From positions 1 through 59,654 of the IMG/VR virus record IMGVR_UViG_3300048913_000137: a stretch of 59,654 bases of DNA, one strand, 5' to 3'. Source of the stretch: a virus. The translations under genes were made by a program, and so were the position numbers. Shown here piece after piece: positions 364-59,015 of this stretch (positions are counted from its first letter, which is position 1; each line of letters opens with the position of its first letter). Below the pieces are notes generated by a model. That model was not told the DNA's origin. It saw only the letters and a program-made list of their open reading frames with translations, and did not search any database.

Positions 364-374
364 GAAGTTACTTC
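364..374. repeat. Dispersed palindrome copy GAAGTTACTTC
   Basis: Abuts/overlaps the stop of the tail-fibre gene. Confidence 0.9.
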
Positions 375-1459
375 TATACGAAGTCAGCAATCGCGATCTC
401 CTGTATCTGTCCCGGTGTTTGCGGCGGGAAAGCAGACAAGACTATACCGATCATCTGCGTCTCGTAAGAAACGCCGTCCGCGCTCAAGTAAAGGTCAAAT
501 AGAGTGGGCGCTTGAAGCTGCTCGCCACCACTACCGGCGCGGGCTTGGACTGCCAAGTAGTTTACGGTGTTGCCCGATGTGGGGCTGACAGCATTATACC
601 AAGCCGGGCCTTGGTTCTGTGAACCATTGACCTGGAATTCCCACCAAGTCGCGTCGTTCCCGTCGATTGCCTTGCCAGGCGTATTTCCGCTGCTCGATCC
701 CTGCGCGGTAGCGGTGCCGCCGAGAAGGATATTGGTTCCCCCGGAAGCCGCGCTCGCCTTCAACTCGCCGATGCAATGGGCGAAGTAGCCGACGCTGCGG
801 ATGTAAAGGCCCACCGCCTTGACGTTGGTTTTATCCACGATGCGCGAGGCCGACCAAGGCAGGAACGTGGGATGAAGGCTGTGTGTGAAGGGACCCGCAA
901 AATTGAATGTCTCTTTGCCGTTTCCGCCGTGCATGTAGGCTTCCGGGTAGAAGGCCGGGATCAACCCGGTCATCGTGAAGCCGCCGGTTCCGGCAGTCGG
1001 GTTGCCGCTAACCGTTCCGTTCCTTCCGAACCATACTTTCTTGGCGTCGGCGTCAACATAAACGTCGATGACATCACCAGCGGCCCATGACCCCAGCCCC
1101 GATGTCCCGAAGCCCCCGTTGGTCCCCCAGCGTCCGTCATTGATGAAGTCAACGCCGTGCGTATCTGCGCCAAGGTAGGAGGATGTGATAGCAAACGGTC
1201 CCGAAATGCCGACACCGATCTCGCCGCCGGACATGGGCATGACATCGACGGTCATCTGGAACCGCCATTTGCCGGTGACTTTGCCGTGCTTCGCGCGGAC
1301 ATGGGTGACGCTGTTCGACGCCGACTTGGTTACAGTCAAGTCGCCGTTGCTGAAGGTCACGTTCGCCGCGCCTGCCCCCAACACACCGGCCGGATACAGG
1401 GTCGTCCCGATCACCGGAGCGGCCGAAGCGAATCGGCCGGATTGAACCATCATGCTCAT
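374..1459 (-). CDS. Tail fibre / receptor-binding protein with SPRY(B30.2)-like and F5/8 type C (discoidin)-like domains
   Basis: 361-aa ORF, last gene of the tail module. GKWRFQMTVD...GVGISG...GDVIDVYVDADAKKVWFGRNG resembles the SPRY signature. C-terminal GKAIDGNDATWWEF resembles discoidin. Confidence 0.6.
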   Translation of the reverse strand: MSMMVQSGRFASAAPVIGTTLYPAGVLGAGAANVTFSNGDLTVTKSASNSVTHVRAKHGKVTGKWRFQMTVDVMPMSGGEIGVGISGPFAITSSYLGADTHGVDFINDGRWGTNGGFGTSGLGSWAAGDVIDVYVDADAKKVWFGRNGTVSGNPTAGTGGFTMTGLIPAFYPEAYMHGGNGKETFNFAGPFTHSLHPTFLPWSASRIVDKTNVKAVGLYIRSVGYFAHCIGELKASAASGGTNILLGGTATAQGSSSGNTPGKAIDGNDATWWEFQVNGSQNQGPAWYNAVSPTSGNTVNYLAVQARAGSGGEQLQAPTLFDLYLSADGVSYETQMIGIVLSAFPPQTPGQIQEIAIADFV

Positions 1460-1460
1460 A

Positions 1461-2249
1461 TCACTGGTGCCCGATCAAATAGACCTTCAGCCCGGCAGCG
1501 CCGGTTCCGGCCACGTCGATGTCGATGGTGATCTCCGCATCATCCGCGAGCGCGCTGTCCGAGATGACGGCAGCGGTCGCCGCCGTGGCGGAAGTCTTCT
1601 CGCCCGAGTCGATGGAGAGCTTGGTTGAAAGGATCGTCGCGCCACCCTCATTGATGTCCACGGTAGGGTTGCCGCTCGACGAAGCCGTGGTGAGGCTTGC
1701 CTTCACCGCCGTCAGCGTGAACGCATAGGGCATCCGAAACGTGACCTTGGCCGCGCCCGTCGTGATCGCCGTTGTCTCGTCGCCGACTGCCACGATCAGC
1801 GATTCGGTGACGGTGCCACCGCCGCCTCCGCTTTCCGCCACCCAGGCTCCATCCTTGCGGACGTAGCCGGTGCCATCCTCCGGCGCTTCGGGGACGCCGA
1901 CCGCCGCTGCAACCGATTCCCAGGCCACGCCGTCGAAGCGATAGTCCTCTTCCTCGTCGAGCACGAAGACCTTCCAGCCCTCATGCGGTGTGATGTAAAC
2001 CCAGGCTTCCTCGCCCGTCTCGCCATCCCAAACGATGATCTCATTCGCGTGCGTGGCGTGCGCCTCGTCGAGAAGATGCACGTCGCCGAGCGCCGGGGTC
2101 GCAGGCTCCGCCGCTTCGATGGAGAGCACGACGGGCTGCACCAGGACGGAGAGCTTCAGCAGCCCCAGGTCTTGATCGTCCTTCCAGCCGTCTTGGCCGA
2201 GATCATAGAAAGCCCGAAGGCCGAGATTTGGTAGGTCACGCGCTGCCAT
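1461..2249 (-). CDS. Tail-associated protein, DUF2793-like N-terminus
   Basis: 262 aa. N-terminal LGLRAFYDLGQDGWKDDQDLGLLKLSVLVQ...GWKVFVLDEE..FDGVAWE matches my memory of DUF2793 proteins that follow GTA/J-like tail genes. Confidence 0.55.
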   Translation of the reverse strand: MAARDLPNLGLRAFYDLGQDGWKDDQDLGLLKLSVLVQPVVLSIEAAEPATPALGDVHLLDEAHATHANEIIVWDGETGEEAWVYITPHEGWKVFVLDEEEDYRFDGVAWESVAAAVGVPEAPEDGTGYVRKDGAWVAESGGGGGTVTESLIVAVGDETTAITTGAAKVTFRMPYAFTLTAVKASLTTASSSGNPTVDINEGGATILSTKLSIDSGEKTSATAATAAVISDSALADDAEITIDIDVAGTGAAGLKVYLIGHQ

Positions 2250-2260
2250 TTGCTGTCTCC

Positions 2261-2271
2261 GAAGTTACTTC
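2261..2271. repeat. Dispersed palindrome copy GAAGTTACTTC
   Basis: Intergenic, 12 nt upstream of the start at 2249. Confidence 0.9.
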
Positions 2272-2276
2272 CGCTA

Positions 2277-4592: not shown

Positions 4593-4800
4593 CTCGCTCC
4601 GCCCTTGCAATCTCGACCACGCGCTTAGCGAACGGGTCGCCTGTCTCTAACAGCTTTTCCCCAGGGATGCCACCCGCAAGAAACTCGTTCCAGGCCAAGC
4701 CGTTGTGCTTCCACCAGTCGCGAGCGCCACCCGAGCAAATCTTAGCCATGCGGATGTGGCGCATGAAGACTTGCGGTTCGGAAGTTACTTCCTCGCTCAT
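4579..4800 (-). CDS. Small tail-module protein (hypothetical)
   Basis: Internal start MSEEVTSEPQ of ORF 4579..5151, coupled to the stop of the upstream gene. The longer N-terminal extension overlaps ORF 4800..5033. Confidence 0.5.
   Translation of the reverse strand: MSEEVTSEPQVFMRHIRMAKICSGGARDWWKHNGLAWNEFLAGGIPGEKLLETGDPFAKRVVEIARAERDGQQ
4781..4791. repeat. Dispersed palindrome copy GAAGTTACTTC
   Basis: In CDS 4579..4800, read as EVTS. Confidence 0.9.
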
Positions 4801-7564: not shown

Positions 7565-7565
7565 A

Positions 7566-10500
7566 TCAGTCCTTCAGCAATTGCTTAATCAGCGGCACAT
7601 TACGACGAAGATGCGTCACTGTCACCTTCTCTCCTGCCATGCCCTGCATCGCCGCCGCAACCTGGTCATCACCGAACGCGAGCACCTGGCGCAAGCCGGT
7701 GGCCGACTCGCCGGAACCGGCCGCCCGCTTGGCCTCCGCCCGCTGCTGCTCTTCGGTCAAGACCTTCTCGCCGCGTTCCAGGACCGCCACCATCTCATTG
7801 TTCTTCAGGCCCGCGCCCTGGGTGCCCTCATGATAGCGGGGCACGGCGGCCAACATCGACGGGTGAAGGTCGAAGCTCGACCGGGTGCGACGCGACGAGC
7901 CGCCGCCGACGCCGCCAGGGCCGGTGCCGCTATGGAAGAAGAAACCACCCAGGCCACCGCCACCGCCCGGCAGGCCGAGCGCCGACTGGATCGCCTTCAG
8001 GATGAGCGCCTGGATAATCATCTTCGCGATCTCGGCCAGGAATGTGGCCGCGAAGTTGAGGAAGGTATCAAGCAGTCCGTTGAATGCGTCGCCCACGCTC
8101 ATCGTGCCGGTGGCAAGACCGGCAAGACCCTTCGCGAAGGAGTCGAACATATTCATGCCGCCCTGAAGCAACTGGTTCTGCACCAGGTTGTTGAGCTTCA
8201 GCACGTTCTCATTCGTGTAGGTCGATTGCGCGGTCACGGCCTGCAACTTCGCGATCCATGCGTCATAGACCTGGGGCTGGATCACCCCAAGCTGGCGCAT
8301 GAGATCAAGGGTCTGCTGGATGACCCGCACTTGCTCGGCAATCATCGGCTGGCTTGTGGCGAAAGCTGCCGCCGTGTCACGCTGCGCGTCGGCCTGGGTC
8401 TTCAGCCCAAGCTCGACGAGGGTGTTGTTCGCCGAGATCAGGTTGTTCCGCTCGGCGATGATTTGGTTGAGCTTGGCTTCCTCCGCGCCGAGCCGGGTGT
8501 TGGCGGTCTTGGCGACATCCGACTGCATCGGACCCTGCTGCGCCTGCCCGCTGATACGCTCCATCTTATCGAGGAACGCCTGAAGCTCGGGCGAGGGCGT
8601 AGCACCAGCGATAGACGTGGCGAATTGACCGGCCGCACCCGCGAGTTGCTGGATGACCGGGTTGAGGCGCGAAGTTACTTCCGACGATTCTTTGATCGCC
8701 TGCGCCGAAGTGATAGCACCACGGTTAGCACGCTCTTCAATGTCGGCGAGAAGCTGTTTGCGCTGGTTGAGGACATCGTTGACCTGATCCTCATAGACCT
8801 TCAACTGCGCCTGCTGCGTCAGGATCGTCTTGTTCGCGTCAAGCTGCGCGCGGTAGGCGTCGATGGTGAGCCCACCGATGGTGCCCTTGCCCTGCGTCAG
8901 CTTGGCGAAGTCGTCGAGCTTCCGGTAGAGCCGGTCATACTGCTTGTCCACGGCGGTCGAAGCATTGGCCAGGGCTTCGGTGATGCCGCCGGTCGCAACC
9001 TTCGCCACCTTTGCATCCATGCCGTCAAGGCCGGACTGAAGGGATTCCTCCGCCGACTCGATCCGGTTCTGAAGCGCAGCGGCTTCGCGCGCCGCCTTGT
9101 CCCGCTCGGACTGTGCCTTCTTCGCCGCGCTCGCGCCCTTCTTGCGCCCCTCTTCGGCGAGCGCATTGGACTCCTTCTGCCGGGCAAGCGCCGCCAACTG
9201 GTCACGCTCTTCATCCGACGCGCCGGACGGTGCCTTGCGGCGGGCTTCGATCTCGGCATTGCGGAGTCGCTCTTCGCGCGTCAGCAGCTTGCGGGCCTTC
9301 AACTCCCGCTGTGCATCGGCGATGGCGTCCTGGCCTTCCTTCGTCGGGCCGGTGGTGCGGCCACCCCTGGGGTCGCCCTGGGGCCGCTGTGGTGCCTGCG
9401 GAGCCCGACCTTGACCGTTGACCGCCGCATTGCCCGCTTGCTCATGAGAGAAGCCCCTGGCGCGCAGCAGCAGATAGTTGAGGCCGACCAGGGCGTTGTT
9501 CACGTCGGCGATGAAGTCTTTCACCACCGTCGTCGAGCCGAGATAATCCAGGAAGGAGCGGAAGGCACCCTTGAAATTGTCAACCGCGTTCTTCCACGGC
9601 CCATTCATCTTCGACGCGCCTTCGTCCATCGACGCATAGAAGCGGTCGAAGACGATCCGGCGAGCTTCGGACTCCTGCCCGCTGTCATACATGGCGCGGA
9701 TGTGCTCGCGCTCCGACACCGTGAGGAAGTTGAATTGCTCGTCGAGCTTCACCACCTGGTCATAGCCGCCGGAGAGCGCGTCGGTCAGCAGTTGTGCCGC
9801 CTCCGGCATTTCCACGCCGGTCGCGTCGCTGGCATTCTTGATCGCCACGGTGAAGGCGTCGATGTATTGCGGGTCAAGCCCGGCTTCGTTGAGATTCTGA
9901 AGGATCGTCATCGCGTCTTCGGCCGAGACGCCGAAGTCCTGCAATGCGATACTGGCGTTCGCCATCTGCTGCGCGGTGATGTCGCCGCCGTCGCCGATCC
10001 GCGCGATGTAGGCTTCGGCCGACTTCAGGGCTTCCGCGCGATCCCCGGCGCGCGAGATCGCCGCCGCCAGGGTGCCGACCGCAACCGCTGCCGCCGCGAC
10101 GAGGGGGATGAAGACCGCGAACCGGGCGATGAGATTCTGCATCGCCGGGATTTGGTAAATCTGACCGAACTGCTGCGCGAACGCCTGGGTGATCGGGGTC
10201 CCGGATGCAACCTGGGTGATGAGATCGTTGACCTGGTAGCCAAGGTTCTGCATGTCCTGAAGGCTGAAGCCGAAAGGAGTCGACGCTCCCCCGGTCTTGC
10301 CCGCGATCTCGTTCTGCGCCGCTGCCGCTTCCTTGGCGGCCTGGGTCAACCGCTGCTCGGCCTGGGTGAGATCGTTGACATCCACGCCTGCCTTGCGGAG
10401 CTTGCCACCCATCTGCTCGGCCAGGTTGCCGTCGCGCTGCATCTCGCGCCCGGCCGCTTCCAGCGCCGCCTCCGCACGCGACAACGCCTTCGCCATCTCG

Positions 10501-12081: not shown

Positions 12082-12437
12082 AGGCCACCGGCTTCTTCCA
12101 GCGTGAGCTTCGAGATCGCGGCGATAGCGGAAGTCTGGAAACCGAGCCCGAGTTTCACCTTCTTGGCGTCGGGCTCATCGGCGGCGATGGAAATAACTTC
12201 CGTCACCAGACCGGGGAAGTCTTTGATGATCGACATGAGGAAGCCCTGCATGTTCTTCGACGTGTAGATGTCCTGCTTCGACTGCTGCCAAAGCTGCACC
12301 GCCTTGGAGATCGGCTCCAAGTGATCCTGAAGCAGAAGTGCGAAGTCATCCAGGTTGAGGCCCCGAAGAGACACCACCTGGTCTTGCCCCAACGGCACAT
12401 CTACTCGGGGGGTTTGATATTCTGAAAGCACGCCCAT
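11976..12437 (-). CDS. Tail assembly chaperone (gpG analogue)
   Basis: 153-aa acidic ORF between the major tail and tape measure genes. Contains the slippery heptamer GGGAAAC. Confidence 0.7.
   Translation of the reverse strand: MGVLSEYQTPRVDVPLGQDQVVSLRGLNLDDFALLLQDHLEPISKAVQLWQQSKQDIYTSKNMQGFLMSIIKDFPGLVTEVISIAADEPDAKKVKLGLGFQTSAIAAISKLTLEEAGGLGNLFASLAALARGALQNASEMSQQATRSRGSIGE
12075..12081 (-). promoter_or_regulatory. Programmed -1 ribosomal frameshift site G_GGA_AAC
   Basis: Zero-frame codons read CTG GGA AAC (L-G-N of GGLGNLF). The heptamer has X_XXY_YYZ form, and lambda G/T uses GGGAAAG. Confidence 0.55.
12190..12200. repeat. One-mismatch variant GAAaTAACTTC
   Basis: In the chaperone gene, read as EVIS. 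Confidence 0.5.
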
Positions 12438-13635: not shown

Positions 13636-14196
13636 TCAAGCGTAGGGGTTGCGGACATCTGTAGTGATCTCCAAGATCAACGGCAGATAGAACATGGCAA
13701 GACGCGACGCCGCTTCCTCGCTAGGCGGCCTTACCACGCCCTGCCCAATGGTTAAAGACCCAATATCACCACCGAGTCGGTAGAGCTTATCGGTGCGTTC
13801 CCGGCCATCGGGAAACTCGAAAGTGATGAGCGCAAGCTGCTGCTCGACTGCCGCTTTCATCCAGTAAGCGGGCGCGCTCGGCTCTTCGTGGTTGTCTTTC
13901 GGCCAGCCCTGCACCAGCAGCGTCCACGCCTCATTGCGGTTGAAGCCTGCCTCGCCTGCCGGGGAGCCGATGATCGGGCGCGGTGCTTCCAGGATCGAAA
14001 GCGTGTCGATCACTTCCTTGGCGGTGATGACCGACTTGCCGATCCAGCACTTGATTCCCTCATAGCCGGAAGTGACTTCCAGGTGAGCGGCGAGCTTGCG
14101 AATCACTCGAAGCTGCTTCGGCGGGGGCGAAGGATCGTCCTCCCGATTCACGGCAGCGTCGAGATAGCTGAAGTCGAAGGTGTTGAAGTCAAGCAT
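13636..14196 (-). CDS. Tail terminator-like protein (gpU-position)
   Basis: Start taken at MLDFNTF. Call rests on gene order only. Confidence 0.4.
   Translation of the reverse strand: MLDFNTFDFSYLDAAVNREDDPSPPPKQLRVIRKLAAHLEVTSGYEGIKCWIGKSVITAKEVIDTLSILEAPRPIIGSPAGEAGFNRNEAWTLLVQGWPKDNHEEPSAPAYWMKAAVEQQLALITFEFPDGRERTDKLYRLGGDIGSLTIGQGVVRPPSEEAASRLAMFYLPLILEITTDVRNPYA
14069..14079. repeat. Dispersed palindrome copy GAAGTGACTTC
   Basis: In CDS 13636..14196, read as EVTS. Confidence 0.85.
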
Positions 14197-15565: not shown

Positions 15566-15576
15566 GAAGTTACTTC
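15566..15576. repeat. Dispersed palindrome copy GAAGTTACTTC
   Basis: Intergenic, next to the capsid hairpin. Confidence 0.9.
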
Positions 15577-17578: not shown

Positions 17579-18214
17579 TTACGCGGCCTTGGACTTCTTG
17601 GCCTTCTTCATGTCCGACCAGGAGGCCCCGGCCACGCGGCTGTGATCGCCCAGGATCATCGCCGCCTGCGCTTCCGGGGAGTCGTCATCGTCGTCCTCGC
17701 CCTCGTCGCCTGCGCCGACGTTGGGCTGGCGGGTGCCACCCATCGCGCGATCCAGGTGGTTCACGTTGTCGCGGCTCCGGTTGCCCTTCACCTTCGACTT
17801 GCCCTTGACGCGGCGCTTGCGGGCGGCGTCGGCGGCTTCTTCGCCGTCATCGTCGTCCGAGTCGCCATCGTCTTCGTCCGAGTCGTCGCCGTCCTCGTCA
17901 TCATCGTCCTCGTCGCCGGGGCCGTCGTTGTCGGCCGAAACCGACTGCTTGCCCTTGCCCTTGCCCTTGGCGGGCTTGGCGGCATTTCCGGCGGCGGCGT
18001 CGATCATGCCGATGGCATCTTCTTCGGTGATCGCGACGTTGGCGATCAGCTTGGCACCAAGGGCAACCTGGCCCTTTGCTGCGGCGTGATCCTTGATCGC
18101 GGCGTTGCGCGCCATCATGGTCGCCACGCCATTGACGGCGGTGGAGATCATGCCCTGCACTTCGTCGCGGGTGAGGCCGGAAGCAACTTCCGAGCCAGCC
18201 TTCTTGTCAGTCAT
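17579..18214 (-). CDS. Possible nested in-frame scaffold protein (Nu3 analogue)
   Basis: Internal ATG at 18214 (MTDKKAG) preceded by GAGGAAGAAG. By analogy with lambda C/Nu3. Confidence 0.35.
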   Translation of the reverse strand: MTDKKAGSEVASGLTRDEVQGMISTAVNGVATMMARNAAIKDHAAAKGQVALGAKLIANVAITEEDAIGMIDAAAGNAAKPAKGKGKGKQSVSADNDGPGDEDDDDEDGDDSDEDDGDSDDDDGEEAADAARKRRVKGKSKVKGNRSRDNVNHLDRAMGGTRQPNVGAGDEGEDDDDDSPEAQAAMILGDHSRVAGASWSDMKKAKKSKAA

Positions 18215-19156
18215 TGCTTCTTCCTCTTCATCCGTGGAGGGGTCCCCGTCCGCCAATTCAGCCAACCAGGCATCAATGGCTTCCGTGGTGGTCTTTACTG
18301 CATCAATTAACCCTTTGTCTAGGGCTTCATCGGCGCGGTAAATTCGGGCCTGGGTTGCCCGCACGTCGGCTTCGCTCATCTCGCGAGCTTCGGCCACCAA
18401 CGCAATGAAGTCATCCCAGGTCTTTCCGGCGCTCTCCGTCCACTCGTCGAGCACCGACTGCGGCAAATCCTTATAGGGATTGCCGTCAATTTTGTGTTCG
18501 CCCGCCGTCGCGAAAGTGACCTTGATCCCTTCCTGCTTCAGCGCGCCTTCATATGAAATGTGCATCCGATAGACGCCGATGCTGCCGATCCGCGCGCTCG
18601 GGATGGCATACATCGTCGTGGCGCAGCAGGCGAGGGCGATGCCACCGGAGGCCGCCAGCGAATCGACCATCGCCAGGCTCGGCTTCAGTTTGCGCGACAT
18701 CATGATCTCGCGGGCAAGCTCGAAGCAGCCGGAGGCTTCGCCGCCGGGACTGTCAACGTCGAAAACGATTTGCTCAACGTCGTCGTCATCCAGCGCCAGG
18801 TTGAGCATCCGGCGGACGTAGTTGTAGCCGGTCACGAATCCCCAGGACCCGTTGAACCGATTGATGAGCGTGCCGTGGATCGGGATCACCGCGACGCCAT
18901 CGACATAGACGAAGGGCTTGCGCTCGGAGCCTTCTTCGTGATCGTATCCGTAGGCAAGCTCCAAGGCTTCCCTGGAAGCAACTTCCGCCGCCACGCCTTC
19001 GGTCGCCGCATCGGTTTCGCCATAGCGGGTCAGGTCCGCCATGACGCGATCCGTCGTCTCTCCCACAATGAGCATGTCCTTCAGCGACATGCGCTGAAGG
19101 ACGGAGATCATGCCGGAGAGATTGCTGTTACTCGTCGTCTTCTTGGCCATTGTCAT
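17579..19156 (-). CDS. Head maturation protease (S49/ClpP family, gpC-like) fused to a scaffold-like C-terminal half
   Basis: VIPIHGTLI...IVFDVDSPGGEASG is the S49 motif. The C-terminal half is Ala-rich and then carries poly-acidic and basic blocks. Start uncertain (19150-19183). Confidence 0.8.
   Translation of the reverse strand: MTMAKKTTSNSNLSGMISVLQRMSLKDMLIVGETTDRVMADLTRYGETDAATEGVAAEVASREALELAYGYDHEEGSERKPFVYVDGVAVIPIHGTLINRFNGSWGFVTGYNYVRRMLNLALDDDDVEQIVFDVDSPGGEASGCFELAREIMMSRKLKPSLAMVDSLAASGGIALACCATTMYAIPSARIGSIGVYRMHISYEGALKQEGIKVTFATAGEHKIDGNPYKDLPQSVLDEWTESAGKTWDDFIALVAEAREMSEADVRATQARIYRADEALDKGLIDAVKTTTEAIDAWLAELADGDPSTDEEEEAMTDKKAGSEVASGLTRDEVQGMISTAVNGVATMMARNAAIKDHAAAKGQVALGAKLIANVAITEEDAIGMIDAAAGNAAKPAKGKGKGKQSVSADNDGPGDEDDDDEDGDDSDEDDGDSDDDDGEEAADAARKRRVKGKSKVKGNRSRDNVNHLDRAMGGTRQPNVGAGDEGEDDDDDSPEAQAAMILGDHSRVAGASWSDMKKAKKSKAA
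18180..18190. repeat. One-mismatch variant GAAGcAACTTC
   Basis: In the protease/scaffold gene, read as EVAS. Confidence 0.6.
18975..18985. repeat. One-mismatch variant GAAGcAACTTC
   Basis: In the protease gene, read as EVAS. Confidence 0.6.
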
Positions 19157-41022: not shown

Positions 41023-41033
41023 GAAGGCACTTC
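41023..41033. repeat. One-mismatch variant GAAGgCACTTC
   Basis: Non-coding DNA right of the iterons. Confidence 0.5.
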
Positions 41034-41143: not shown

Positions 41144-41154
41144 CAAGTAACTTC
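41144..41154. repeat. One-mismatch variant cAAGTAACTTC
   Basis: Non-coding DNA. Confidence 0.45.
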
Positions 41155-41420: not shown

Positions 41421-41431
41421 GAAGTTACTTC
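41421..41431. repeat. Dispersed palindrome copy GAAGTTACTTC
   Basis: Non-coding; flanks extend the dyad (GGCGAAGTTACTTCCGCC). Confidence 0.9.
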
Positions 41432-43390: not shown

Positions 43391-43430
43391 CGTAAAAATA
43401 GAGCGGCGCGGAAGTAACTTCCGGCCGCCC
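43391..43430 (-). terminator. Candidate intrinsic terminator built around a palindrome copy
   Basis: Minus strand reads GGCGGCCGGAAGTTACTTCCGCGCC (imperfect extended stem) followed by gctctaTTTTT. Confidence 0.35.
43411..43421. repeat. Dispersed palindrome copy GAAGTAACTTC
   Basis: Intergenic, core of a hairpin followed by a T-run. Confidence 0.9.
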
Positions 43431-43935: not shown

Positions 43936-44567
43936 TAGATCGCCCTCACTGACTGATAGGGGGCACCATAGGCAGGGCTTCCCCCGTTCGCCCTTGGCTC
44001 TAGCTCCAAATGGACGGGAATCCATCCGGTTGACTTGCCAACGCGGAAGCGCCGCCGCTCGCCATAGGAGTCGACAACTTCCACCGTGCGCCCCTCTAGT
44101 CCGATCAGTTGCGGCACTAGATCGACTTCGCAACGCTCGCGAGTCGCGTTGTGCCGCGCATGAATAGCGGACGTTATCGCCTGATATTGCTCATAGCTCG
44201 CGAGCGTGCCCGGCGCTTCCACGCCATGAGGGCAAATCGCCCAATAGTCGGACGGCGCACGCTCTAAAAGCCAAGCGCCATAACGAGTCGCCCTTTCGTG
44301 GCAAATGTCAAAGCCAAGGCAAGTAAAGCCTTCGCCGCAACGGATAACGAATAAGCGCCTTTCTTCGTTAAGCGTGACAGGGGGCGCGCAAGTTTCCAGG
44401 GAGTCGCCCCCCTTGTAAAACTTGAACGTCCGGCCGCTCCTTTCGCCCTTGGCGTGAATCCATTTGCGGCCGATGGAAGTTACTTCCGCGAAGCGTTCGC
44501 CCATCATAAAAATATCGGAATGCGGGGCAATCTTGACTCGGTCGCCCTTGTGAATTGGATTTGCCAT
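43935..44567 (-). CDS. Hypothetical protein
   Basis: 210-aa ORF, AAAGGAG upstream. Confidence 0.55.
   Translation of the reverse strand: MANPIHKGDRVKIAPHSDIFMMGERFAEVTSIGRKWIHAKGERSGRTFKFYKGGDSLETCAPPVTLNEERRLFVIRCGEGFTCLGFDICHERATRYGAWLLERAPSDYWAICPHGVEAPGTLASYEQYQAITSAIHARHNATRERCEVDLVPQLIGLEGRTVEVVDSYGERRRFRVGKSTGWIPVHLELEPRANGGSPAYGAPYQSVRAI
44476..44486. repeat. Dispersed palindrome copy GAAGTTACTTC
   Basis: In CDS 43935..44567, read as EVTS. Confidence 0.9.
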
Positions 44568-44590: not shown

Positions 44591-46117
44591 TTAGGCCGCC
44601 GCGCTCGACACAACGGCCGAGTCGTCCGCTTCCGCGTCCAGGACGCCAGCCAAGGCCGCCGCGCGCTCAATTTCCGGCCATGTGAAATTGTGACATCCGG
44701 CCACAAATCCGCCATCCGAAAAGATGCGATCAATCTGGAAATGGCCGACTCGGATAGTCTTTCCGTTGCGTTCCCATACTTTCACAATGCTATGGCTTGC
44801 CGCGTCATAGTGTTTTGTCCGCATGAGCTTGACGAAGCGGAAAGCCTTGACGGCATGAGCGAGGGGCACGCTTGCGCCGTGCGAAGTTTCCAGCATATCG
44901 CCGCGAATGCGAAGCGCCGCGCCGCCGCTTTCCGCGTCAAACGTGACTCGCACGTCCGCCCCGTCCAGCCATGCCGCGACTCGTTCCTCTTGCGCCAGCC
45001 GGTTAAGGCGCTGGCGTTCCTCATATTCGCGTTGCTCGCGTTCCCGCTCGACAAGCCGGAAAGCGTCAAGCTCGCTTTGCAGCGCGGGCAAGAGCGAGTC
45101 CAGCCGTGCCGACTCTGCCCTCATGCGGAAGCGAGCGGCGGACGGGAAGGCCGCCACATTGGACAGATAGGCCAGCGAGCTAGACGCTTTGCGAGTCGCT
45201 TCCGTGCGGGCGCTAATGCCGTGCGGTCCCGCCCCATCGGTCGCAATGCCGCTTAGAATGCGCTGGCATGACCGGACCATAGCAATCTGATAGCGGACGG
45301 GATTCCACCGCTGATAAGACTTTTCCGCGCCATGATAACCGGCCTTGCGCCGCAATGCGTCCGCACGGCGCGACTTGATCGCCGCTTGACGCTTGGCGCT
45401 AAAGCCTTCCGCCTTGGCGAGTCGCGCCGCATGATAAAGCGCCTTCGCTTCGCGATCATAGAACGACTCATATTTGCTGGAGTCCTTCCGCATATGGTCG
45501 CGCCATTCGGAGTCGCTCATGGTCGCATAGCGAACCGCCAAAGCGTGCGCCGCCTTGTCCGCCTTGCGCTTGTCCGCTTTTGCCTTCGCCGCGTCCAGTC
45601 GCTCGCGCTCGCGCTTGATCGCCGCCCATGACGCGGCGGGAAGTCCGACGCGCCGCGCCAGATATGCCCCTGCCTCTTCCGCGTCGCCTTCCGTTGCATT
45701 CCAGCGATAGGCGTTCCGGCGGCCGGTCAAGGCGCTGGCGCGTTCAAGCAAGAGCTTCCGCGCGGCGGCCTTGCGGCGCTTCGCATATTCAGGATTGCGC
45801 GAGTCCTTGCCCGCGTCGCGCCAGTCGGCGAATTCCAGGACATCGCGGAAGGCGGTTAGGTCGCTGATATAGAAATGATCGCGATGCGATACGGCGCGCG
45901 CCGCGTAGGATTGATGGCGGGACGTGCTGATAGAGTAGCTATCGGAATTCAGGAAGGCGACGCCAGCCGAGTCGATATAACCGGCCAGGAAGTGACTTCC
46001 ATAGGAATAGAGGCGCGCGCCAGTGAAATAGAAATTGCCGTTGCCGCTCTTTCCTTCGTCCTGCCGCATTTGCGCCCAAACGTGCGCCACCATGTCATTA
46101 GCGAAAACTTTTGCCAT
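44591..46117 (-). CDS. Hypothetical protein (508 aa)
   Basis: Longest ORF of the island, GGAG upstream. N-terminal FYFTGARLYSYGSHFLAGY and C-terminal GCHNFTWPEIE blocks; function not recognised. Confidence 0.6.
   Translation of the reverse strand: MAKVFANDMVAHVWAQMRQDEGKSGNGNFYFTGARLYSYGSHFLAGYIDSAGVAFLNSDSYSISTSRHQSYAARAVSHRDHFYISDLTAFRDVLEFADWRDAGKDSRNPEYAKRRKAAARKLLLERASALTGRRNAYRWNATEGDAEEAGAYLARRVGLPAASWAAIKRERERLDAAKAKADKRKADKAAHALAVRYATMSDSEWRDHMRKDSSKYESFYDREAKALYHAARLAKAEGFSAKRQAAIKSRRADALRRKAGYHGAEKSYQRWNPVRYQIAMVRSCQRILSGIATDGAGPHGISARTEATRKASSSLAYLSNVAAFPSAARFRMRAESARLDSLLPALQSELDAFRLVEREREQREYEERQRLNRLAQEERVAAWLDGADVRVTFDAESGGAALRIRGDMLETSHGASVPLAHAVKAFRFVKLMRTKHYDAASHSIVKVWERNGKTIRVGHFQIDRIFSDGGFVAGCHNFTWPEIERAAALAGVLDAEADDSAVVSSAAA
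45989..45999. repeat. Dispersed palindrome copy GAAGTGACTTC
   Basis: In CDS 44591..46117, read as GSHF. Confidence 0.85.
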
Positions 46118-46597: not shown

Positions 46598-46894
46598 ATG
46601 GCGACGAAATCTGAATCCGCTTTGAGCTTCCCGGCACAGGTCAAGGCCCTCGCCATCGGGGAGAGCACCAGCAAGACCAAGCGGGTGCCGGTAGGCGGCA
46701 AGGAGGCCCGCGACCTGGCCGGTGTCCTGGCCAAGCTCCGCAACGTCTGCAATCAGGCCGTGAGCAAGGTCCGCACCGAAACCGGAAGTAACTTCCGCGT
46801 CGAAAGCGGCATCTGCCTGACCGATGACAAGGCCGCACATCTTGCGACTGTGGCCGTCACCCGCTTCGAGGACGAAGACGCGGTTGACATCTGA
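46598..46894 (+). CDS. Hypothetical protein, first gene of the rightward operon (ends EDEDAVDI)
   Basis: 98-aa ORF, AGAGGG upstream. Confidence 0.55.
   Translation: MATKSESALSFPAQVKALAIGESTSKTKRVPVGGKEARDLAGVLAKLRNVCNQAVSKVRTETGSNFRVESGICLTDDKAAHLATVAVTRFEDEDAVDI
46785..46795. repeat. Dispersed palindrome copy GAAGTAACTTC
   Basis: In CDS 46598..46894 (+), read as GSNF. Confidence 0.9.
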
Positions 46895-50723: not shown

Positions 50724-51482
50724 ATGACCAGCGTTCCTCGCCTCGCAATGAAGCGCAACGACACCCGCACCTACAGCAAGTGGGAGTGGTTCCGCGCCTA
50801 CTTCGTGCTGTTCAATCTGCTGCCGCTCATGCTGCTGTTCTGGCTGCTCGACGGCCGGACCCTGCCGCCCCGGATCGTCGCGAAGTTACTTCGCGAGCAT
50901 GAGTATTATCGGGCGACGCACACAATGGACTTCCGCATCCCGCCGAACACCGATGTCCCGGCCTACATGCACCGCTGGTGGAGGATCGCCCGCAATTGGG
51001 CCTTCAACATCTACTACCATGTGGTGCTGCGAAGCGACGATGACCGGGCGCTGCATGACCATCCTTGGTTCTCCTTCAGCATCGTGCTCGACGGCGGCTA
51101 CTTCGAGCACACAATCCAGGCAGGCGGCATTCACCGCAAGGTCTGGAAGGGACCCGGCAGCATGACCTTCCGGTGGACCGGCAGCAAGGCGCACCGGCTC
51201 GAATTGAAGCGGATGCCACTCATGGAAGCACCACTTCATGCGCTCATGAACCGCCAGGTCGAGATCAGCGCGGCCACCGACCAGAAGGTCGAAGTCCCCG
51301 CCACCACGATCTTCATCACAGGGCCGGTGCTCCGGCGCTGGGGCTTCCATCACGAGTCGGGATGGGTGGACGCCTATGATTGGGATACCTTCTGCGAGGC
51401 GAACGGTATCCACCAGAACATGAAAATGGACGGCGGTTCCGACGCTGCCGTCTCGCCTCGCAACCTTCACAACGCAAATTGA
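50724..51482 (+). CDS. Hypothetical membrane-anchored protein with an HDHPW-containing cupin-like block
   Basis: N-terminal TM helix, LHDHPWFSFSIVLDGGYFEH. Confidence 0.45.
   Translation: MTSVPRLAMKRNDTRTYSKWEWFRAYFVLFNLLPLMLLFWLLDGRTLPPRIVAKLLREHEYYRATHTMDFRIPPNTDVPAYMHRWWRIARNWAFNIYYHVVLRSDDDRALHDHPWFSFSIVLDGGYFEHTIQAGGIHRKVWKGPGSMTFRWTGSKAHRLELKRMPLMEAPLHALMNRQVEISAATDQKVEVPATTIFITGPVLRRWGFHHESGWVDAYDWDTFCEANGIHQNMKMDGGSDAAVSPRNLHNAN
50882..50892. repeat. Dispersed palindrome copy GAAGTTACTTC
   Basis: In CDS 50724..51482 (+), read as KLL. Confidence 0.9.
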
Positions 51483-52729: not shown

Positions 52730-52763
52730 GGCATCGGAAGTTACTTCCGGTGCCTTTTCTTTT
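52730..52763 (+). terminator. Intrinsic terminator whose stem is an extended palindrome copy
   Basis: GGCATCGGAAG-tta-CTTCCGGTGCC (11 bp including one G-U) followed by TTTTCTTTT. Confidence 0.7.
52737..52747. repeat. Dispersed palindrome copy GAAGTTACTTC
   Basis: Intergenic, core of the terminator at 52730..52763. Confidence 0.9.
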
Positions 52764-54674: not shown

Positions 54675-54685
54675 GAAGTTACTTC
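54675..54685. repeat. Dispersed palindrome copy GAAGTTACTTC
   Basis: Intergenic, 7 nt upstream of a TTGACA hexamer. Confidence 0.9.
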
Positions 54686-54692
54686 GGCGGTG

Positions 54693-55082: not shown

Positions 55083-56324
55083 ATGGCTAAGACCCCGAAG
55101 AAGACTGCGATGGCGATCCCGTCGTCGAAGGTTGACATCAAGCTCACCGCTGGTTCGGTCGAGCCTGCGATGAAGGCCGCCGAAGCGAAGAGCACCAAGC
55201 TCTACCGCGTGCCGGTTGCGTCGATCAAGACGATCCCCGGCTTCAACGTCCGCGTCCAGTCGGCCGACTATATCGCACACCGCGACATGATCGCCGATTC
55301 GATCCGCACCAATGGCTTCGACCAGACCAAGCCGCTCGCCGGTTACGTCGCCAAGGAAGGCGATAAGAACGTCATCTATGTGACGGACGGCCACACCCGA
55401 CTCGATGCGGTCGAGAAGCTGAACGCCGACGACACCGACGCGGTGATCCAGACCCTCCCGGTCCTGGTGCATCCGGCCGATAAATCGCTGACCGACCTGA
55501 CCGTGGCGCTGCACACCAGCAACACCGGCCGCCCGCTGACGCCCTTCGAGCTTGGCGTCGTCGTCAAGCGTCTCATGAAGGATGAAGGCGCGGACAAGGC
55601 GGAGATCGCGAGCCGCCTGGCCGTGACCCCGCGCTATCTCGACGACGTGCTGCTGCTCGTCAACGGCCCGAAGGAAGTGCGGACTGCCGTGCTCGAAGGC
55701 CAGGTGTCTTCGACGCTCGCGATCCAGGAGCTTCGGAAGGACCCGGAAAAGGCGGTCGAGAAGATCACCGCTGCCGTGGCCAAGTCGGGCGGCTCCAAGG
55801 TCACGAAGAAGGCGCTCGGCCCCAAGATGCAGAAGGTGAAGTCCACCGTCAGCATCGCGACCGGCACCGACATGAAGGAGATCGTCAAGGCGGTCGCCGC
55901 CCTGGTCCGCAAGGCGATCCCTGCCTCCACGCCGGAGGACGAGGACGCGATCAAGGAAGCCCTGGTCGATGGCACCATCAACCTGGTGATCGAAGTCCCG
56001 GCTCCCGAGAAGCCCGCCGCCAAGCCGAAGGCGAAGCCTGCTGCCAAGAAGGCCGCTGCGAAGAAGGCTCCGGCGAAGAAGGCGGCCGAGCCCGCTGCCG
56101 ACAAGCCCGAGAAGGCCCCGGCCAAAAAGAAGGGCAGCGCCAAGCCGAAGGCCGAGAAGCCGCCGGTCGAGGAAGACGACGACAACCTGACGGCGGAAGA
56201 TGACGATGATCTCGGCATCGACGGCGCGGAAGTTGCTTCCGATGGCGAGGACGACGAGATCGCGATCATCCCTCCGGCCGTGAAAAACGGCGAGGGTGTC
56301 GATGACGACGCCGACGAAATCTAA
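55083..56324 (+). CDS. ParB/Srx-domain protein fused to a histone H1-like Lys/Ala/Pro tract and an acidic tail
   Basis: VASIKTIPGFNVR...VTDGHTRLDAV (ParB N-terminal domain); AAKPKAKPAAKKAAAKKAPAKKAA...KKKGSAKPKAEKP; ends DDDADEI. Confidence 0.7.
   Translation: MAKTPKKTAMAIPSSKVDIKLTAGSVEPAMKAAEAKSTKLYRVPVASIKTIPGFNVRVQSADYIAHRDMIADSIRTNGFDQTKPLAGYVAKEGDKNVIYVTDGHTRLDAVEKLNADDTDAVIQTLPVLVHPADKSLTDLTVALHTSNTGRPLTPFELGVVVKRLMKDEGADKAEIASRLAVTPRYLDDVLLLVNGPKEVRTAVLEGQVSSTLAIQELRKDPEKAVEKITAAVAKSGGSKVTKKALGPKMQKVKSTVSIATGTDMKEIVKAVAALVRKAIPASTPEDEDAIKEALVDGTINLVIEVPAPEKPAAKPKAKPAAKKAAAKKAPAKKAAEPAADKPEKAPAKKKGSAKPKAEKPPVEEDDDNLTAEDDDDLGIDGAEVASDGEDDEIAIIPPAVKNGEGVDDDADEI
56229..56239. repeat. One-mismatch variant GAAGTTgCTTC
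   Basis: In the ParB-like gene, read as EVAS. Confidence 0.6.
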
Positions 56325-57287: not shown

Positions 57288-57775
57288 TTCCATCCCTCCC
57301 ATGCGGCCTTGCTGTCACCCTGGATCGCGGCGCATTGCTCGGCCACGGTCTTGCCTGGCGTCTTCTTGTCGAGCGCGCCGATCCGCTTCTCGGCCGACGC
57401 ATACCGCTGCTCGAAGACGACCGTGGCATTGGCCAGGGCCTTGTCGGCGTTGTCGGCGCGCTGCTTGGCCTCCACAGCCTGCGAAGAGATCAGCAGGAGG
57501 GCACCCCTGGCGCTCACCAGGCCGCGATTCAGTCCGTTGATGGCTCCGACTACCTGTTCCGGCTTCAGGGGCTTACGGATGCCCTTCGCGTCGGCCTCCA
57601 CGGTGGCGTCGGTGGTCGCGAGCACGACCTGGTTCTGCCAGTCGTTCAACCGGGCGATCTCCTGCCCACGGCCCATCCATGACATCGCCAGGACCACGAC
57701 CGCCACGACGGCGATCCCGATCCCGGCGAGCTTCACAGCCATGCCGTAGGGATTGAGTTTATCAAGCAAGCTCAT
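57284..57775 (-). CDS. Inner-membrane spanin (i-spanin)
   Basis: Start MSLLDK with AGGAGA upstream. One N-terminal TM helix, then a coiled coil. Sits between the endolysin and o-spanin. Confidence 0.65.
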   Translation of the reverse strand: MSLLDKLNPYGMAVKLAGIGIAVVAVVVLAMSWMGRGQEIARLNDWQNQVVLATTDATVEADAKGIRKPLKPEQVVGAINGLNRGLVSARGALLLISSQAVEAKQRADNADKALANATVVFEQRYASAEKRIGALDKKTPGKTVAEQCAAIQGDSKAAWEGWK

Positions 57776-57783
57776 GTGATCTC

Positions 57784-58509
57784 CTATGCTTCGTTGGTTG
57801 AGACGGCCCCGCCAGTTGTCACCTGATAGGGCTTCCAGCTTGCAAGAGGATTCTTGTAGGCCGGACGGCGGGCACCCTTCAGTCGGCTCTTCGCGAGCCG
57901 TGCGATTGTTACCTTGTCGGAAGTGTTGCCTCCGAGCACATGATAGTAGCCGGAGTCCTCGCCGACGTAGAGCCCGACATGCCCGCCGCCGTCGCGCACG
58001 AAGCACAGCACGTCGCCGAGCGAGGGGACTTCAGCCTTGACCCCGAAGTTGAGCCAGTTGAGCGCCCACAGGGGACCGGCGGGCACCGTGTAACCGGCGC
58101 GCTTCGTGACCACGGCCATCGCCAGGCCGCACCATGCGATGCTGTCTGCCGTGTAGGTCTTTTCCAGGCCCGTCTCCTTGGCCCAGGCCATGATCGTCGG
58201 GTTGTTGCCCGAGCCCGGCGTCTCGACGACACCGTAGATGTCGATGAATTCCTGAAGGATGCGCGGCAGCGTGCCGATCTTGCCGAGCCAGGCATACTTG
58301 GAATCGAAGCCCTTCGGCAGCGGGTAGTTGCCAGCGACGGCGGGGGCAACCGGGATCACCGGGGCAGGCACGATGCCTTGCGCCTTCTCAACCAGGTCCA
58401 GGAGCTTCAGCACGCCCGCCAGGGTGCCTTCGCCGGGATCGTTGTCGATCCGTCCGCTGTAATAGCCGAGCGCCACCATGCGGCGCTGTGCGTCAGACCA
58501 CTCGCTCAT
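57784..58509 (-). CDS. Endolysin: peptidoglycan-binding domain + NlpC/P60 (TIGR02594-like) peptidase
   Basis: ALGYYSGRIDNDPGEGT resembles PG_binding_1. IAWCGLAMA...GHVGLYVG...YHVLGGN are Cys/His catalytic blocks. Confidence 0.7.
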   Translation of the reverse strand: MSEWSDAQRRMVALGYYSGRIDNDPGEGTLAGVLKLLDLVEKAQGIVPAPVIPVAPAVAGNYPLPKGFDSKYAWLGKIGTLPRILQEFIDIYGVVETPGSGNNPTIMAWAKETGLEKTYTADSIAWCGLAMAVVTKRAGYTVPAGPLWALNWLNFGVKAEVPSLGDVLCFVRDGGGHVGLYVGEDSGYYHVLGGNTSDKVTIARLAKSRLKGARRPAYKNPLASWKPYQVTTGGAVSTNEA

Positions 58510-59015
58510 TCCAGAATCTCCGTCTCTTTCTTGGGTGGCACCGGGGGCTCCGGCGCTGCCGTTGCGGCAGGCGGCACCTGTGGCGTGGGCGGGATGCCCG
58601 TCGTGGAAGCAACTTCCGTCGTCCCCTTCTTCTCATCGACCACGGTGCGCGTGGCCGTGCCGACGCCGCCTTTCAGCAGCGAGACGGCACCGATCATCTT
58701 GGCAATCTGCTCGGCGGACGGCGCGACCATGTAGTAGGTCACGACCACCAGCAGGGACCAATACATCCAGCCGAACATGCGCTCGATAACCCCGAGCGCG
58801 CGGATGGTGATACTGGCCACGGCCTGCGCGCTCATCCCGTCGATCCGCGCCACGACGCCACCGACGATCTTGTCAGTCGCGTAGGCAAGCCAGGCCATGA
58901 GGCCGAAGATGATGAGGATAGCCAGAAACGTCAAAACCCGCCGCCAAAGCCAGTTGGACTCGGGCAGCGGGTCTTGCATGTCAGCCAGGACTTGCGGTGT
59001 CGGTGTGTCGGTCAT
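58506..59015 (-). CDS. Holin-like membrane protein (two TM helices, Pro/Thr-rich tail)
   Basis: Start MTDTPTP lies 1 nt after the upstream stop. The TM segments are VLTFLAILIIFGLMAWLAY and WMYWSLLVVVTYYMV. Confidence 0.45.
   Translation of the reverse strand: MTDTPTPQVLADMQDPLPESNWLWRRVLTFLAILIIFGLMAWLAYATDKIVGGVVARIDGMSAQAVASITIRALGVIERMFGWMYWSLLVVVTYYMVAPSAEQIAKMIGAVSLLKGGVGTATRTVVDEKKGTTEVASTTGIPPTPQVPPAATAAPEPPVPPKKETEILE
58606..58616. repeat. One-mismatch variant GAAGcAACTTC
   Basis: In the holin-like gene, read as EVAS. Confidence 0.6.

Follow-up and report, generated by a model that had tools for sequence, protein, structure and literature searches.

The stretch of DNA analysed here (the window; positions 1 to 59,654 of IMG/VR virus record IMGVR_UViG_3300048913_000137) is a siphovirus genome of ~60 kb and 61.5% GC, resembling the Chi/Casjensviridae phages, that carries a genome-wide array of a short palindrome as well as a gene for an orphan protein of the ParB/Noc/KorB family (Table 1). 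Its replication module comprises a family A DNA polymerase (PolA), an Enc34-type single-stranded DNA-binding protein (SSB), a DUF2800 nuclease, an SNF2 helicase, a VRR-NUC protein, a primase-polymerase/helicase and ThyX. The closest isolates are the Erythrobacter phages vB_EliS-R22L and R16L (67% amino-acid identity of the large terminase subunit, TerL), with Sphingomonas phage Carli and Burkholderia phage AH2 being more distant.

An exact search of the window recovered 26 copies of GAAGTNACTTC, and allowing one mismatch added 7 near copies, which gives an array of 33 sites in total. The full consensus is a 13-bp odd palindrome, S-GAAGT-W-ACTTC-S, written out as GGAAGTWACTTCC, in which the centre base is W in 22 of the 26 exact copies and the flanks are mostly S (position -1: G16/C9/A1; position +11: C17/G7/T2). 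Four of the seven near copies represent a single variant, GAAGTTGCTTC on the coding strand, which is read as E-V-A-S. The first-pass annotation, made from the letters of the window, had listed 26 exact sites and 7 near copies. The latter were recovered exactly, as were all but one of the former (its 29169 should be 29170), and the over-representation it had roughly estimated was borne out by shuffles and Markov models. Dinucleotide shuffles of the window gave an expectation of 0.02 exact copies (1.08 with up to one mismatch), Markov models of order 1-4 gave 0.03-0.41, and 300 shuffles keeping the proteins and per-gene codon usage, in which synonymous codons were permuted within each gene, gave 0.47 on average and 4 at most.

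Table 1. Palindrome sites of the window and the two candidate DNA-binding protein genes beside site 54675.
Feature	Position	Strand	Context	Encoded reading or length	Relatives
exact site GAAGTTACTTC	364..374		non-coding, 3' edge of gene 374-1414(-)
exact site	2261..2271		between 1461-2249(-) and 2277-4592(-)		orthologue R22L 20439
exact site	4781..4791		in 4579-4800(-)	E-V-T-S	orthologue R22L 23000
exact site	8671..8681		tape-measure gene 7566-11765(-)	EVTS	orthologues R22L 26920, Carli variant site 29963
near copy GAAATAACTTC, hybrid half-sites	12190..12200		in 11976-12398(-)	EVIS	identical near copy in R22L; full variant site Carli 26357
exact site	14069..14079		in 13636-14196(-)	EVTS
exact site	15566..15576		intergenic, downstream of major capsid gene 15613-16680(-)		junction shared with R22L 33641
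near copy GAAGCAACTTC	18180..18190		in 17579-19150(-)	EVAS	exact at same position in R22L, L088, L030
near copy GAAGCAACTTC	18975..18985		in 17579-19150(-)	EVAS
exact site	19704..19714		portal gene 19128-20780(-)	GSDF
exact site	21098..21108		large terminase gene 21065-23092(-)	RSNF
exact site	22397..22407		large terminase gene 21065-23092(-)	GSYF	orthologues R22L 40047, Carli near-variant 16716
exact site	23794..23804		DUF1441 gene 23151-23897(-)	EVTS
exact site	27134..27144		in 26724-27209(-)	KLL
exact site	27987..27997		methyltransferase-like gene 27512-28201(-)	EVTS
exact site	29170..29180		DNA polymerase A gene 28455-30620(-)	EVTS
exact site	30623..30633		intergenic, 2 nt upstream of PolA start codon		junction shared with R22L 47538
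exact site	31993..32003		DUF2800 nuclease gene 31583-32971(-)	KLL	orthologue R22L 48641
exact site	33798..33808		in 33731-34711(-)	EVTS
exact site	37188..37198		primase-helicase gene 35632-38103(+)	KLL	orthologue R22L 52784
exact site	40389..40399		in 40190-40549(-)	EVTS
near copy GAAGGCACTTC	41023..41033		non-coding
near copy CAAGTAACTTC	41144..41154		non-coding
exact site	41421..41431		non-coding
exact site	43411..43421		non-coding by our gene calls
exact site	44476..44486		non-coding by our gene calls
exact site	45989..45999		in 44591-46117(-)	GSHF
exact site	46785..46795		DUF7609 gene 46598-46894(+)	GSNF	kept in L131, L132, L025
exact site	50882..50892		in 50724-51482(+)	KLL	kept in L007; near R22L 11012
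exact site	52737..52747		intergenic, upstream of 52777-53337(+)
exact site	54675..54685		73 bp upstream of gapR-like/parB-like operon		equivalents R22L 13356, Carli 44645
GapR-like DNA-binding protein (PF10073)	54758-55045	+	co-transcribed neighbour of the parB-like gene in close relatives
candidate binder, orphan ParB/Noc/KorB-family protein	55083-56324	+		413 aa
near copy GAAGTTGCTTC	56229..56239		3' part of parB-like gene	EVAS
near copy GAAGCAACTTC	58606..58616		in 58506-59030(-)	EVAS

The array is under selection at the DNA level. By our own gene calls, 22 of the 33 copies are intragenic and all three reading phases as well as intergenic DNA are used, with 13 sites read as E-V-x-S, 5 as (G/R)-S-x-F, 4 as K-L-L and 11 being non-coding; of the earlier 14/5/4/10 split, the two middle classes stood, while the first and last became 13 and 11. 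In the phase-0 reading, GAA-GTW-ACT-TCN, the motif draws on rare codons (13% of Val codons are GTA or GTT, and 8% of Thr codons are ACT), and the peptide EVTS occurs 8 times in the proteome compared to 0.22 expected (36-fold), each of the eight being encoded by the motif. The motif therefore shapes the proteins and not the reverse, in agreement with the initial suggestion that DNA and not a peptide is selected.

The sites are also significantly more evenly spaced than under random placement. The coefficient of variation of the gaps was 0.58 for the exact window sites (n = 26, P = 0.0017), 0.53 when near copies were included (n = 32, P = 1e-4), 0.59 for the exact sites of R22L (n = 25, P = 0.004) and 0.40 for the variant sites of Carli described below (n = 38, P < 5e-5). 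The smallest gap between exact window sites was 796 bp compared to 89 expected, and the largest with near copies included was 4097 bp (P = 0.001; 3035 bp in Carli), close to the roughly 4 kb reported at first, although 5.4 kb separates two of the exact copies. Selection therefore acts on coverage, at ~1 site per 1.5-2 kb. This statistical evenness, like the specificity switch among relatives, goes beyond what the first-pass annotation contained.

Even spacing, together with a palindrome that is identical on both strands, would also suit lagging-strand priming or initiation signals for the primase-helicase (35632-38103), palindromic so as to prime either strand, and 1.5-2 kb is similar to the length of bacterial Okazaki fragments. 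We nevertheless regard this explanation as highly improbable: AH2 has a homologous primase-helicase (homologues 42-57% identical) and no array, in the likewise array-free Ruegeria phage DSS3-P1 the corresponding position is annotated as a helicase, and sites recur every 0.5 kb in the dense-array contig L164. Moreover, the primases described so far recognise, to our knowledge, ~3 nt.

Relatives of the phage were compared by a de novo scan for enriched palindromes, which recovered 25 exact copies of the window motif in R22L. In Carli, GAAGTNACTTC was absent (0 copies) and a variant, GGAAA-YSR-TTTCC, written out as GGAAAYSRTTTCC, was present 38-39 times; the same scan found no enriched palindrome in AH2. 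Scanning IMG/VR for the pattern CGGAAGTNACTTCCG gave at least 119 loci, of which 33 (~25 contigs) hold at least 3 motif copies at 0.3-1.8 per kb, and all but one of these 33 (L116) encode homologues of window phage proteins. The protein database likewise held many close ParB-like homologues on contigs of 57-61 kb. Such numbers of array loci and homologues indicate that the clade is common in the environment, and the arrays offer a sequence signature for spotting this abundant Sphingomonadales phage clade in metagenomes.

The comparison points to purifying selection on the sites, which are kept at orthologous positions in relatives. In locus L088 (~75% nucleotide identity), six of the six aligned exact sites are still exact and only the centre base varies. 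In R22L, about ten window sites are orthologous (4781, 8671, 22397, 31993, 37188, roughly 50882, the junctions 2261/15566/30623 and the near copy 12190), while the remaining sites have turned over; a scan of related genomes, as had been proposed with the first description of the array, thus found site positions kept in both relatives. At the positions of window sites 8671, 12190 and 22397, Carli carries the variant motif (GGAAATCGTTTCC, GGAAATCATTTCC and GGAAATCATTTCT; two full sites and one near-variant), and the peptide at the switched sites changes from EVTS to EI(I/V)S. Site specificity switches in concert among relatives, and since the sites of an array changed together, a trans-acting reader whose specificity changed with the sites is implied.

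The Carli sites bear in addition on the idea that the motif acts in RNA, as a GGAAG-NNN-CUUCC hairpin for processing, termination or translational control. Such a role could accommodate the 11 of 33 sites that are non-coding, some of them just upstream of start codons, as well as several sites of L164 located after the Shine-Dalgarno sequence and before the ATG of small early genes. Predicted energies are however only 0 to -4.2 kcal/mol, with native-context folds no better than shuffles, and the near copies break pairs without compensation, no G-U or double changes being seen. Furthermore, 20 of 39 Carli sites have asymmetric half-sites (GAAAC/GAAAT) that are unpairable at that position, and two thirds of the window sites are intragenic in all three phases. 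The RNA hairpin put forward at first is hence hardly credible.

A sample of host DNA was assembled by using the GapR-like protein as probe against GTDB genomes, which yielded 80 loci (1.204 Mb), nearly all from Sphingomonadales (Novosphingobium, Sphingomonas, Erythrobacter, Tsuneonella and others). This mostly Sphingomonadales DNA contained 0 copies of GAAGTNACTTC, compared to ~525 expected at phage density, and 3 copies of the Carli variant. A similar density in the host genome had been named at the outset as a result that would speak against the array; on the 1.2 Mb sampled around gapR homologues, the motif was rejected as a feature of the host genome. The same counts weigh against a host protein as reader of the sites, be it a nucleoid-associated protein, a Chi-like AddAB/RecBCD signal or a defence or restriction component that the phage exploits or evades. 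The identified hosts of array-bearing isolates are all Sphingomonadales, the Erythrobacter and Sphingomonas phages differ in motif, and even spacing would suit exonuclease protection. Chi is, however, asymmetric, oriented and enriched in the host, while the window site is strictly palindromic, its centre being free, and is absent from the sampled host DNA, and it does not qualify as a Chi-type hotspot. In addition, sister arrays follow the parB-like gene into a contig of 41% GC, whose host is necessarily very different, and DSS3-P1 and AH2, of the same virus family, lack arrays. A host reader is accordingly judged very unlikely.

The protein encoded at 55083-56324 belongs to the ParB/Noc/KorB family. 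Its layout consists of a ParB-CTPase-fold N-domain, a helix-turn-helix (HTH) domain, a possible dimerisation region, a basic tail and an acidic C-terminus, and both the N-terminal ParB/Srx fold and the central HTH domain that define the family were found. It matches PHROG 1033, and Pfam gave weak hits to the KorB domain and to HTH_ParB (21.9 bits for the latter, slightly below the cut-off), with homologues carrying PF17762 or PF08535. A profile built from seven homologues, with an alignment spanning the N-domain through the HTH, matched Noc (7ng0, 7.6e-7), Caulobacter ParB, ParB 6t1f, Spo0J, M. xanthus ParB and KorB. The AlphaFold2 model has a predicted local distance difference test score (pLDDT) of 80-93 over most of residues 40-250 (69-71 at 131-150). 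With this model, Foldseek retrieved Noc 7nfu (2.7e-10), ParB-CTPgammaS 7bnr and ParB-CDP 6sdk (E 1e-8 to 1e-10); the template modelling (TM) score against KorB-KorA 8qa9 was 0.67, and the model superposes on the complex of the KorB DNA-binding domain with its operator (1r71; TM 0.65-0.70, root-mean-square deviation ~3 Å) and on Noc bound to the Noc-binding site (NBS) in 6y93.

The recognition helix of the protein reads T-P-R-Y-L-D-D. Box II, of which the conserved form is GERRxR, is D-G-H-T-R-L-D-A and so has GHTR as opposed to GERR; its G, H and R do not vary across the aligned family, and some relatives have GHRR. Box III, conserved elsewhere as an ENLQR-type motif, is S-N-T-G-R-P-L-T-P-x-E. 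Across these nucleotide-binding motifs the fold is kept and the Arg patch altered. Residues ~250-305 are modelled with a pLDDT of 66-83 as one helix and short strands, and residues 313-413 are disordered, starting with an Ala/Lys/Pro-rich basic repeat (AKKAAAKKAPAKK...) and finishing with an acidic end (...DDDADEI); this basic-then-acidic tail layout recurs in ParB-like homologues down to 26-31% identity. No ParA-like protein was present among the Pfam/PHROG hits of the window genes, and the ParA-binding motif (L/F/I)G(K/R)G(L/F/I), as defined in a survey of the ParB-CTPase fold (PMC12704722), was not found in the N-terminus. The protein is therefore an orphan ParB and not part of a canonical ParABS partition cassette.

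The co-occurrence of this protein with palindrome arrays was observed in two further IMG/VR scans, which were seeded only with ParB-like alignments and in which ±10 kb was visible for most contigs. The scans gave loci in which the ParB-like gene was the sole detectable protein shared with the window; these unrelated contigs include carriers of sister arrays (TAAAGTWACTTTA, CAAAGTNACTTTG), and many have enriched palindromes with the same 5-1-5 design. A ParB identity of at least 49% went with a GAAGT array, with the one exception of L139 (49%), which has only 2 copies. At greater distance, L273 (IMG/VR contig 3300020576_001287; 80 kb, 41% GC) has 11 copies of TAAAG(T/C)-W-(A/G)CTTTA in 20.6 kb, at 2159-19953, with a spacing of mostly 1.2-2.6 kb (range 0.14-4.3 kb), and its ParB-like protein also ends in a basic and then strongly acidic tail. 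The palindrome is CAAAGT-N-ACTTTG in L163 and GAGT-N-ACTC in L145. Agrobacterium phage 7-7-1 (L167 and L168, 27270-39105) has seven copies of CTACAAAT-S-ATTTGTATA(A/G) in its early region, two of which coincide with annotated promoters. The window motif itself reaches 1.65 per kb in L164 and L165 (3300044726_000026 and 3300047409_000056), with 34 copies in 20.5 kb (L164 1-20552). L164 also has two ParB-like genes, paralogues whose products are 410 and 519 aa long. DSS3-P1, from the same virus family, does have a GapR-like gene but contains neither a ParB-like gene nor an enriched palindrome.

Sites also lie close to the parB-like gene itself. A site is located at most ~110 bp upstream of the gene or its operon in the window (54675), R22L (13356), Carli (44645), L164 (9759), L273 (9855) and a TAAAT group of loci, in the last of which AGATAAAT-W-ATTTATCT occurs ~65-80 bp upstream and ~200 bp downstream of the parB-like match region. 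In the window, where 54675 lies upstream of the gene and 56229 inside it, the arrangement is that of parS-, OB- or NBS-type elements, i.e. a short palindromic site with copies by the gene of its binder. R22L, Carli, L164, L273 and the TAAAT group are arranged likewise, and in nearly every group the gene is flanked by sites.

A further correlation was found between the recognition helix, taken from its third residue, and the half-site: R-Y-L-D-D goes with GAAGT in the window type, R-W-V-G-D with GAAGT for the L081 paralogue, R-H-L-N-N with GAAAY in Carli, Q-Y-V-D-G with TAAAT in the TAAAT group, Q-T-V-R-D with AAAGT in L163, T-H-I-T-D with AAAGT in L273, and Q-W-I-V-S with CAAAT in phage 7-7-1. 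Across these 7 groups, Arg at helix position 3 corresponds to G at motif position 1 and Gln or Thr to a base other than G, and Asp at helix position 7 corresponds to G at motif position 4 and Asn, Gly or Ser to A. Each rule is perfect in the 7 groups, which equals 1 in 35 by permutation, with rules that are post hoc and groups that are not independent.

Several points weigh against the ParB-like protein as the reader. Its link to the array is correlative, and as the loci in the correlation were picked by ParB homology, the presence of ParB was guaranteed by design; another shared factor could lie beyond the ±10 kb of the contigs. AH2, L139, L141 and L157 have ParB-like homologues (40-49% identity) and no array, and a search of these four and of L159 and L160 for ParB-like sites found none that was convincing, so that the protein is necessary at best and not sufficient. 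One ParB-like helix of L164, K-H-V-R-D, misfits the rule, and the second paralogue (R-W-V-G-D), which fits, was assigned post hoc. The palindromes of 7-7-1 may simply be promoter elements, and a KorB-like operator role would fit them equally well. The replacement of GERR by GHTR in box II makes nucleotide binding by the protein uncertain, and DNA is not condensed by KorB-CTP in vitro (PMC11790492).

These observations leave some room for a different sequence-specific phage protein as reader, such as the Cro/YdaS-like HTH protein (35329-35625), the DUF7609 protein (46598-46894) or an unannotated small protein, with the ParB-like gene merely accompanying the array. The first two are conserved in the window, R22L and Carli, and the limited view of most contigs and the parB-like genes that occur in array-free genomes are in keeping with such a reader. 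In contrast, neither has a detectable homologue in the array-bearing L164, L163, L145 and L273, and the array-free AH2 has a Cro-annotated gene upstream of its primase gene. As the gene-adjacent sites and the helix-motif correlation favour the ParB-like protein, we find another phage protein an unlikely reader. The GapR-like protein was rejected as a candidate, having no homologue within 10 kb in the array loci L131, L132, L134, L164 and L165 and a homologue in array-free DSS3-P1; it is probably an accessory that is not universal among array-bearing contigs.

A second group of explanations holds that the sites are targets of DNA modification or cutting and that the array would serve as an epigenetic or structural label of phage DNA, the activity being methylation (26724-27209 and 27512-28201), programmed nicks or the TopoVI-A/Spo11-like protein (33731-34711), possibly with the ParB-like protein as activator. 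Methyltransferase homologues are indeed present (phrog_799), the window and R22L share both the methyltransferase and the motif while Carli lacks that enzyme and has another motif, and the window encodes a ligase Ia domain on its own (24070-24435). ParB-like proteins can, moreover, activate phage DNA-modifying enzymes (PMC13229309). However, homologues of the two methyltransferase-related genes are missing from Carli and several array-bearing contigs, and that of 27512-28201 is missing even from the GAAGT loci L071, L080, L017 and L049, which span the PolA-helicase interval. Neither R22L nor Carli has the Spo11-like gene. The ParBs that activate modifying enzymes lack a DNA-binding domain (PMC13229309), while 55083-56324 has an HTH. 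An enzyme alone would not explain positive selection for many evenly spaced sites, and nicking both strands of a palindrome would break the genome. We therefore consider modification or cutting quite unlikely, which applies to both the methyltransferase target and the Spo11-type cleavage that the first-pass annotation had listed. A thymine dioxygenase partner of the TET/JBP type, an idea taken from the same work (PMC13229309), was also looked for and no such domain was found in the window.

With moderate confidence, we propose that the S-GAAGT-W-ACTTC-S array provides genome-wide loading or operator sites for the phage's own orphan ParB/KorB-like protein, 55083-56324. Of the four functions considered at first, comparative evidence favours this ParB/Noc-like binding array, and the site does look like the double-stranded target of a dimeric protein, as had been supposed. 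The palindrome would play the role that parS has for ParB, OB (the KorB operator) for KorB and NBS for Noc. In the Sphingomonadales siphovirus clade, a few operators around the parB-like gene may have multiplied into a genome-wide array that selection maintains at ~1 site per 1.5-2 kb. A dimer would read the two GAAGT half-sites with its HTH domains and, by analogy with ParB and KorB, close as a nucleotide-dependent clamp that binds CTP and slides 1-2 kb from each site, so that evenly placed sites would allow the clamp to cover the phage chromosome in full while leaving host DNA uncovered. The Ala/Lys/Pro-rich basic tail could add non-specific DNA binding. The outcome may be a phage-specific coating and organisation of the replicating genome and/or a global, KorB-like control of transcription, with protection as another conceivable benefit.

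A stronger version is tentative and, on balance, doubtful: a ParB/KorB-type clamp with a histone-H1-like tail might coat or condense the whole phage chromosome and that chromosome only, as a protein-defined 'chromatin' or condensate. If true, viral DNA could be kept apart from the host nucleoid and nucleases, or replication, transcription timing and packaging could be organised, by a system whose protein-site specificity switches in concert between lineages. This touches the question of how phage genomes tell themselves from host DNA during infection. The variant sites (GAAGT, GAAAY, AAAGT and TAAAT) paired with variant helices represent a natural specificity experiment with two residue-to-base rules, and could supply orthogonal ParB/site pairs for DNA labelling.

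A promoter scan at the window sites found no consistent geometry and fewer sigma-70-like matches than in shuffles. A -35-like hexamer closely follows just one site, 54675, which ends 7 bp before TTGACA (54693-54698). The sequence GTTGACAAC is found at 46536-46544 and 54692-54700 (+), in front of 46598-46894 and of the gapR-parB operon respectively, where rightward promoters are likely; one-mismatch versions are located upstream of the PolA gene (30712-30720, -) and of 34812-35186 (35248-35256, -).

Additional features were noticed in the window and its relatives. CGATCG occurs once in the window compared to ~47 expected from 515 GATC, 3 times in Carli and 148 times in R22L, which also has 49 copies of GCGATCGC compared to 1.8 expected; GATC is ~2-3.5-fold over-represented in all four genomes compared. 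The counts suggest that one phage avoids a restriction site and that its relative R22L harbours a further iterated palindrome. In L261-L265, TAAAT-N-ATTTA is accompanied by another enriched palindrome, TTCGC-N3-GCGAA, with 8-9 copies per 12-20 kb. Phage 7-7-1 has contractile-tail sheath and baseplate genes and shares with the window the PolA/SSB/DUF2800/helicase/primase module, the ParB-like gene and a DUF2312 (GapR-like) gene. Within the window, 24070-24435 (-) encodes 121 aa with domain Ia of NAD+-dependent DNA ligase only (PF22745 Nlig-Ia, E 4.6e-8), without the catalytic core, and could modulate the host ligase. The 'Spo11-like' 33731-34711 (-) matches PHROG 6247 'DNA topoisomerase' at 1e-98 and no Pfam family, with homologues in L085 and L125. 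Beside ThyX (49806-50507), 50724-52701 (+) encodes a cupin resembling 'cysteine dioxygenase' (phrog_4786) and a 402-aa protein with a MazG-like pyrophosphatase C-terminus (phrog_5658), and 47202-48536 encodes a protein with a nucleotide-kinase-like segment; these genes around ThyX could form a putative nucleotide-modification module.

Among known systems, KorB, a global regulator with the ParB-CTPase fold, is a close parallel. Plasmid RK2/RP4 is a replicon of ~60 kb with 12 dispersed KorB operators. The operator core is a 13-bp odd palindrome, TTTAGC-G-GCTAAA, KorB-CTP slides up to ~1.5 kb, and proximal operators lie 4-10 bp upstream of promoters (PMC11790492). The phage array thus resembles OB in its odd palindrome of ~13 bp and in having multiple operators dispersed over ~60 kb; the sliding distance is close to the phage site spacing, the 7 bp between site 54675 and its hexamer falls within the range of KorB, and the AlphaFold2 model matches 8qa9 and 1r71. 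It differs in having 26-39 sites compared to 12, two thirds of them intragenic and constraining proteins, in their even spacing, in the lack of a detected IncC/ParA or KorA partner, and in belonging to a virulent-looking siphovirus as opposed to a plasmid. The phage protein also has the extra Ala/Lys/Pro-rich basic tail and is only 15-21% identical.

Noc has ~70 dispersed palindromic sites on the Bacillus subtilis chromosome, according to Wu et al. (2009) and Jalal et al. (2021), both as cited in the fold survey (PMC12704722). As an orphan ParB paralogue without ParA that has many dispersed palindromes, it gives the best match in both sequence and structure. In contrast, the phage element is viral and has 1 site per 2 kb compared to ~1 per 60 kb, the N-terminal membrane-targeting helix was not identified in the phage protein, and NBS is an even 14-bp palindrome with the half-sites in opposite order.

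The stoperators of Cluster A mycobacteriophages are a few dozen 13-bp sites on a genome of ~50 kb to which one phage protein binds, silencing the genome. They are asymmetric, oriented with transcription and mostly intergenic, and their binder is the immunity repressor of a temperate phage. Dozens of one 13-bp site across a phage genome are common to both, whereas the window sites are palindromic, mostly intragenic (22 of 33), evenly spaced and associated with a ParB-family protein, and thus do not class as stoperators; no integrase or repressor cassette was found among the Pfam/PHROG hits of the window genes. In Cluster O mycobacteriophages, more than 30 copies of a 17-bp dyad-symmetric repeat occur genome-wide, with no function given in the abstract of the source; this repeat is likewise palindromic and genome-wide, while sequence, host phylum and phage type differ (PMC4351075). 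The ParBs on which phage thymine dioxygenases depend are orphans without a DNA-binding domain, paired with a TET/JBP enzyme (PMC13229309). They are similarly phage orphan ParB homologues with a use other than partition, and differ in that the window protein has an HTH and the window no TET/JBP gene.

The ParB-CTPase fold survey reports many orphan phage ParBs and, in the part consulted, does not describe such arrays (PMC12704722). No description of the motif or of such a phage array was found in the searchable literature, motif-string hits being unrelated papers with incidental matches, and phages R22L and R16L were not mentioned by name in the literature searched; this agrees with the initial remark that no described phage system is known to carry the motif. 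New relative to these systems are the density and even spacing of the sites, their intragenic placement at a cost in codons and peptides, their occurrence on phage genomes and the switches that site and helix have undergone in particular lineages. Known clamps of the ParB family act at a few centromere sites (ParB), at a dozen operators on a plasmid (KorB) or at sparse positions on a chromosome (Noc), while the phage genome described here has been reshaped, even in its use of rare codons and in recurrent EVTS peptides, to accommodate a site every 1.5-2 kb. If the ParB-like protein binds these sites, the array would represent whole-genome clamp loading on a virus.

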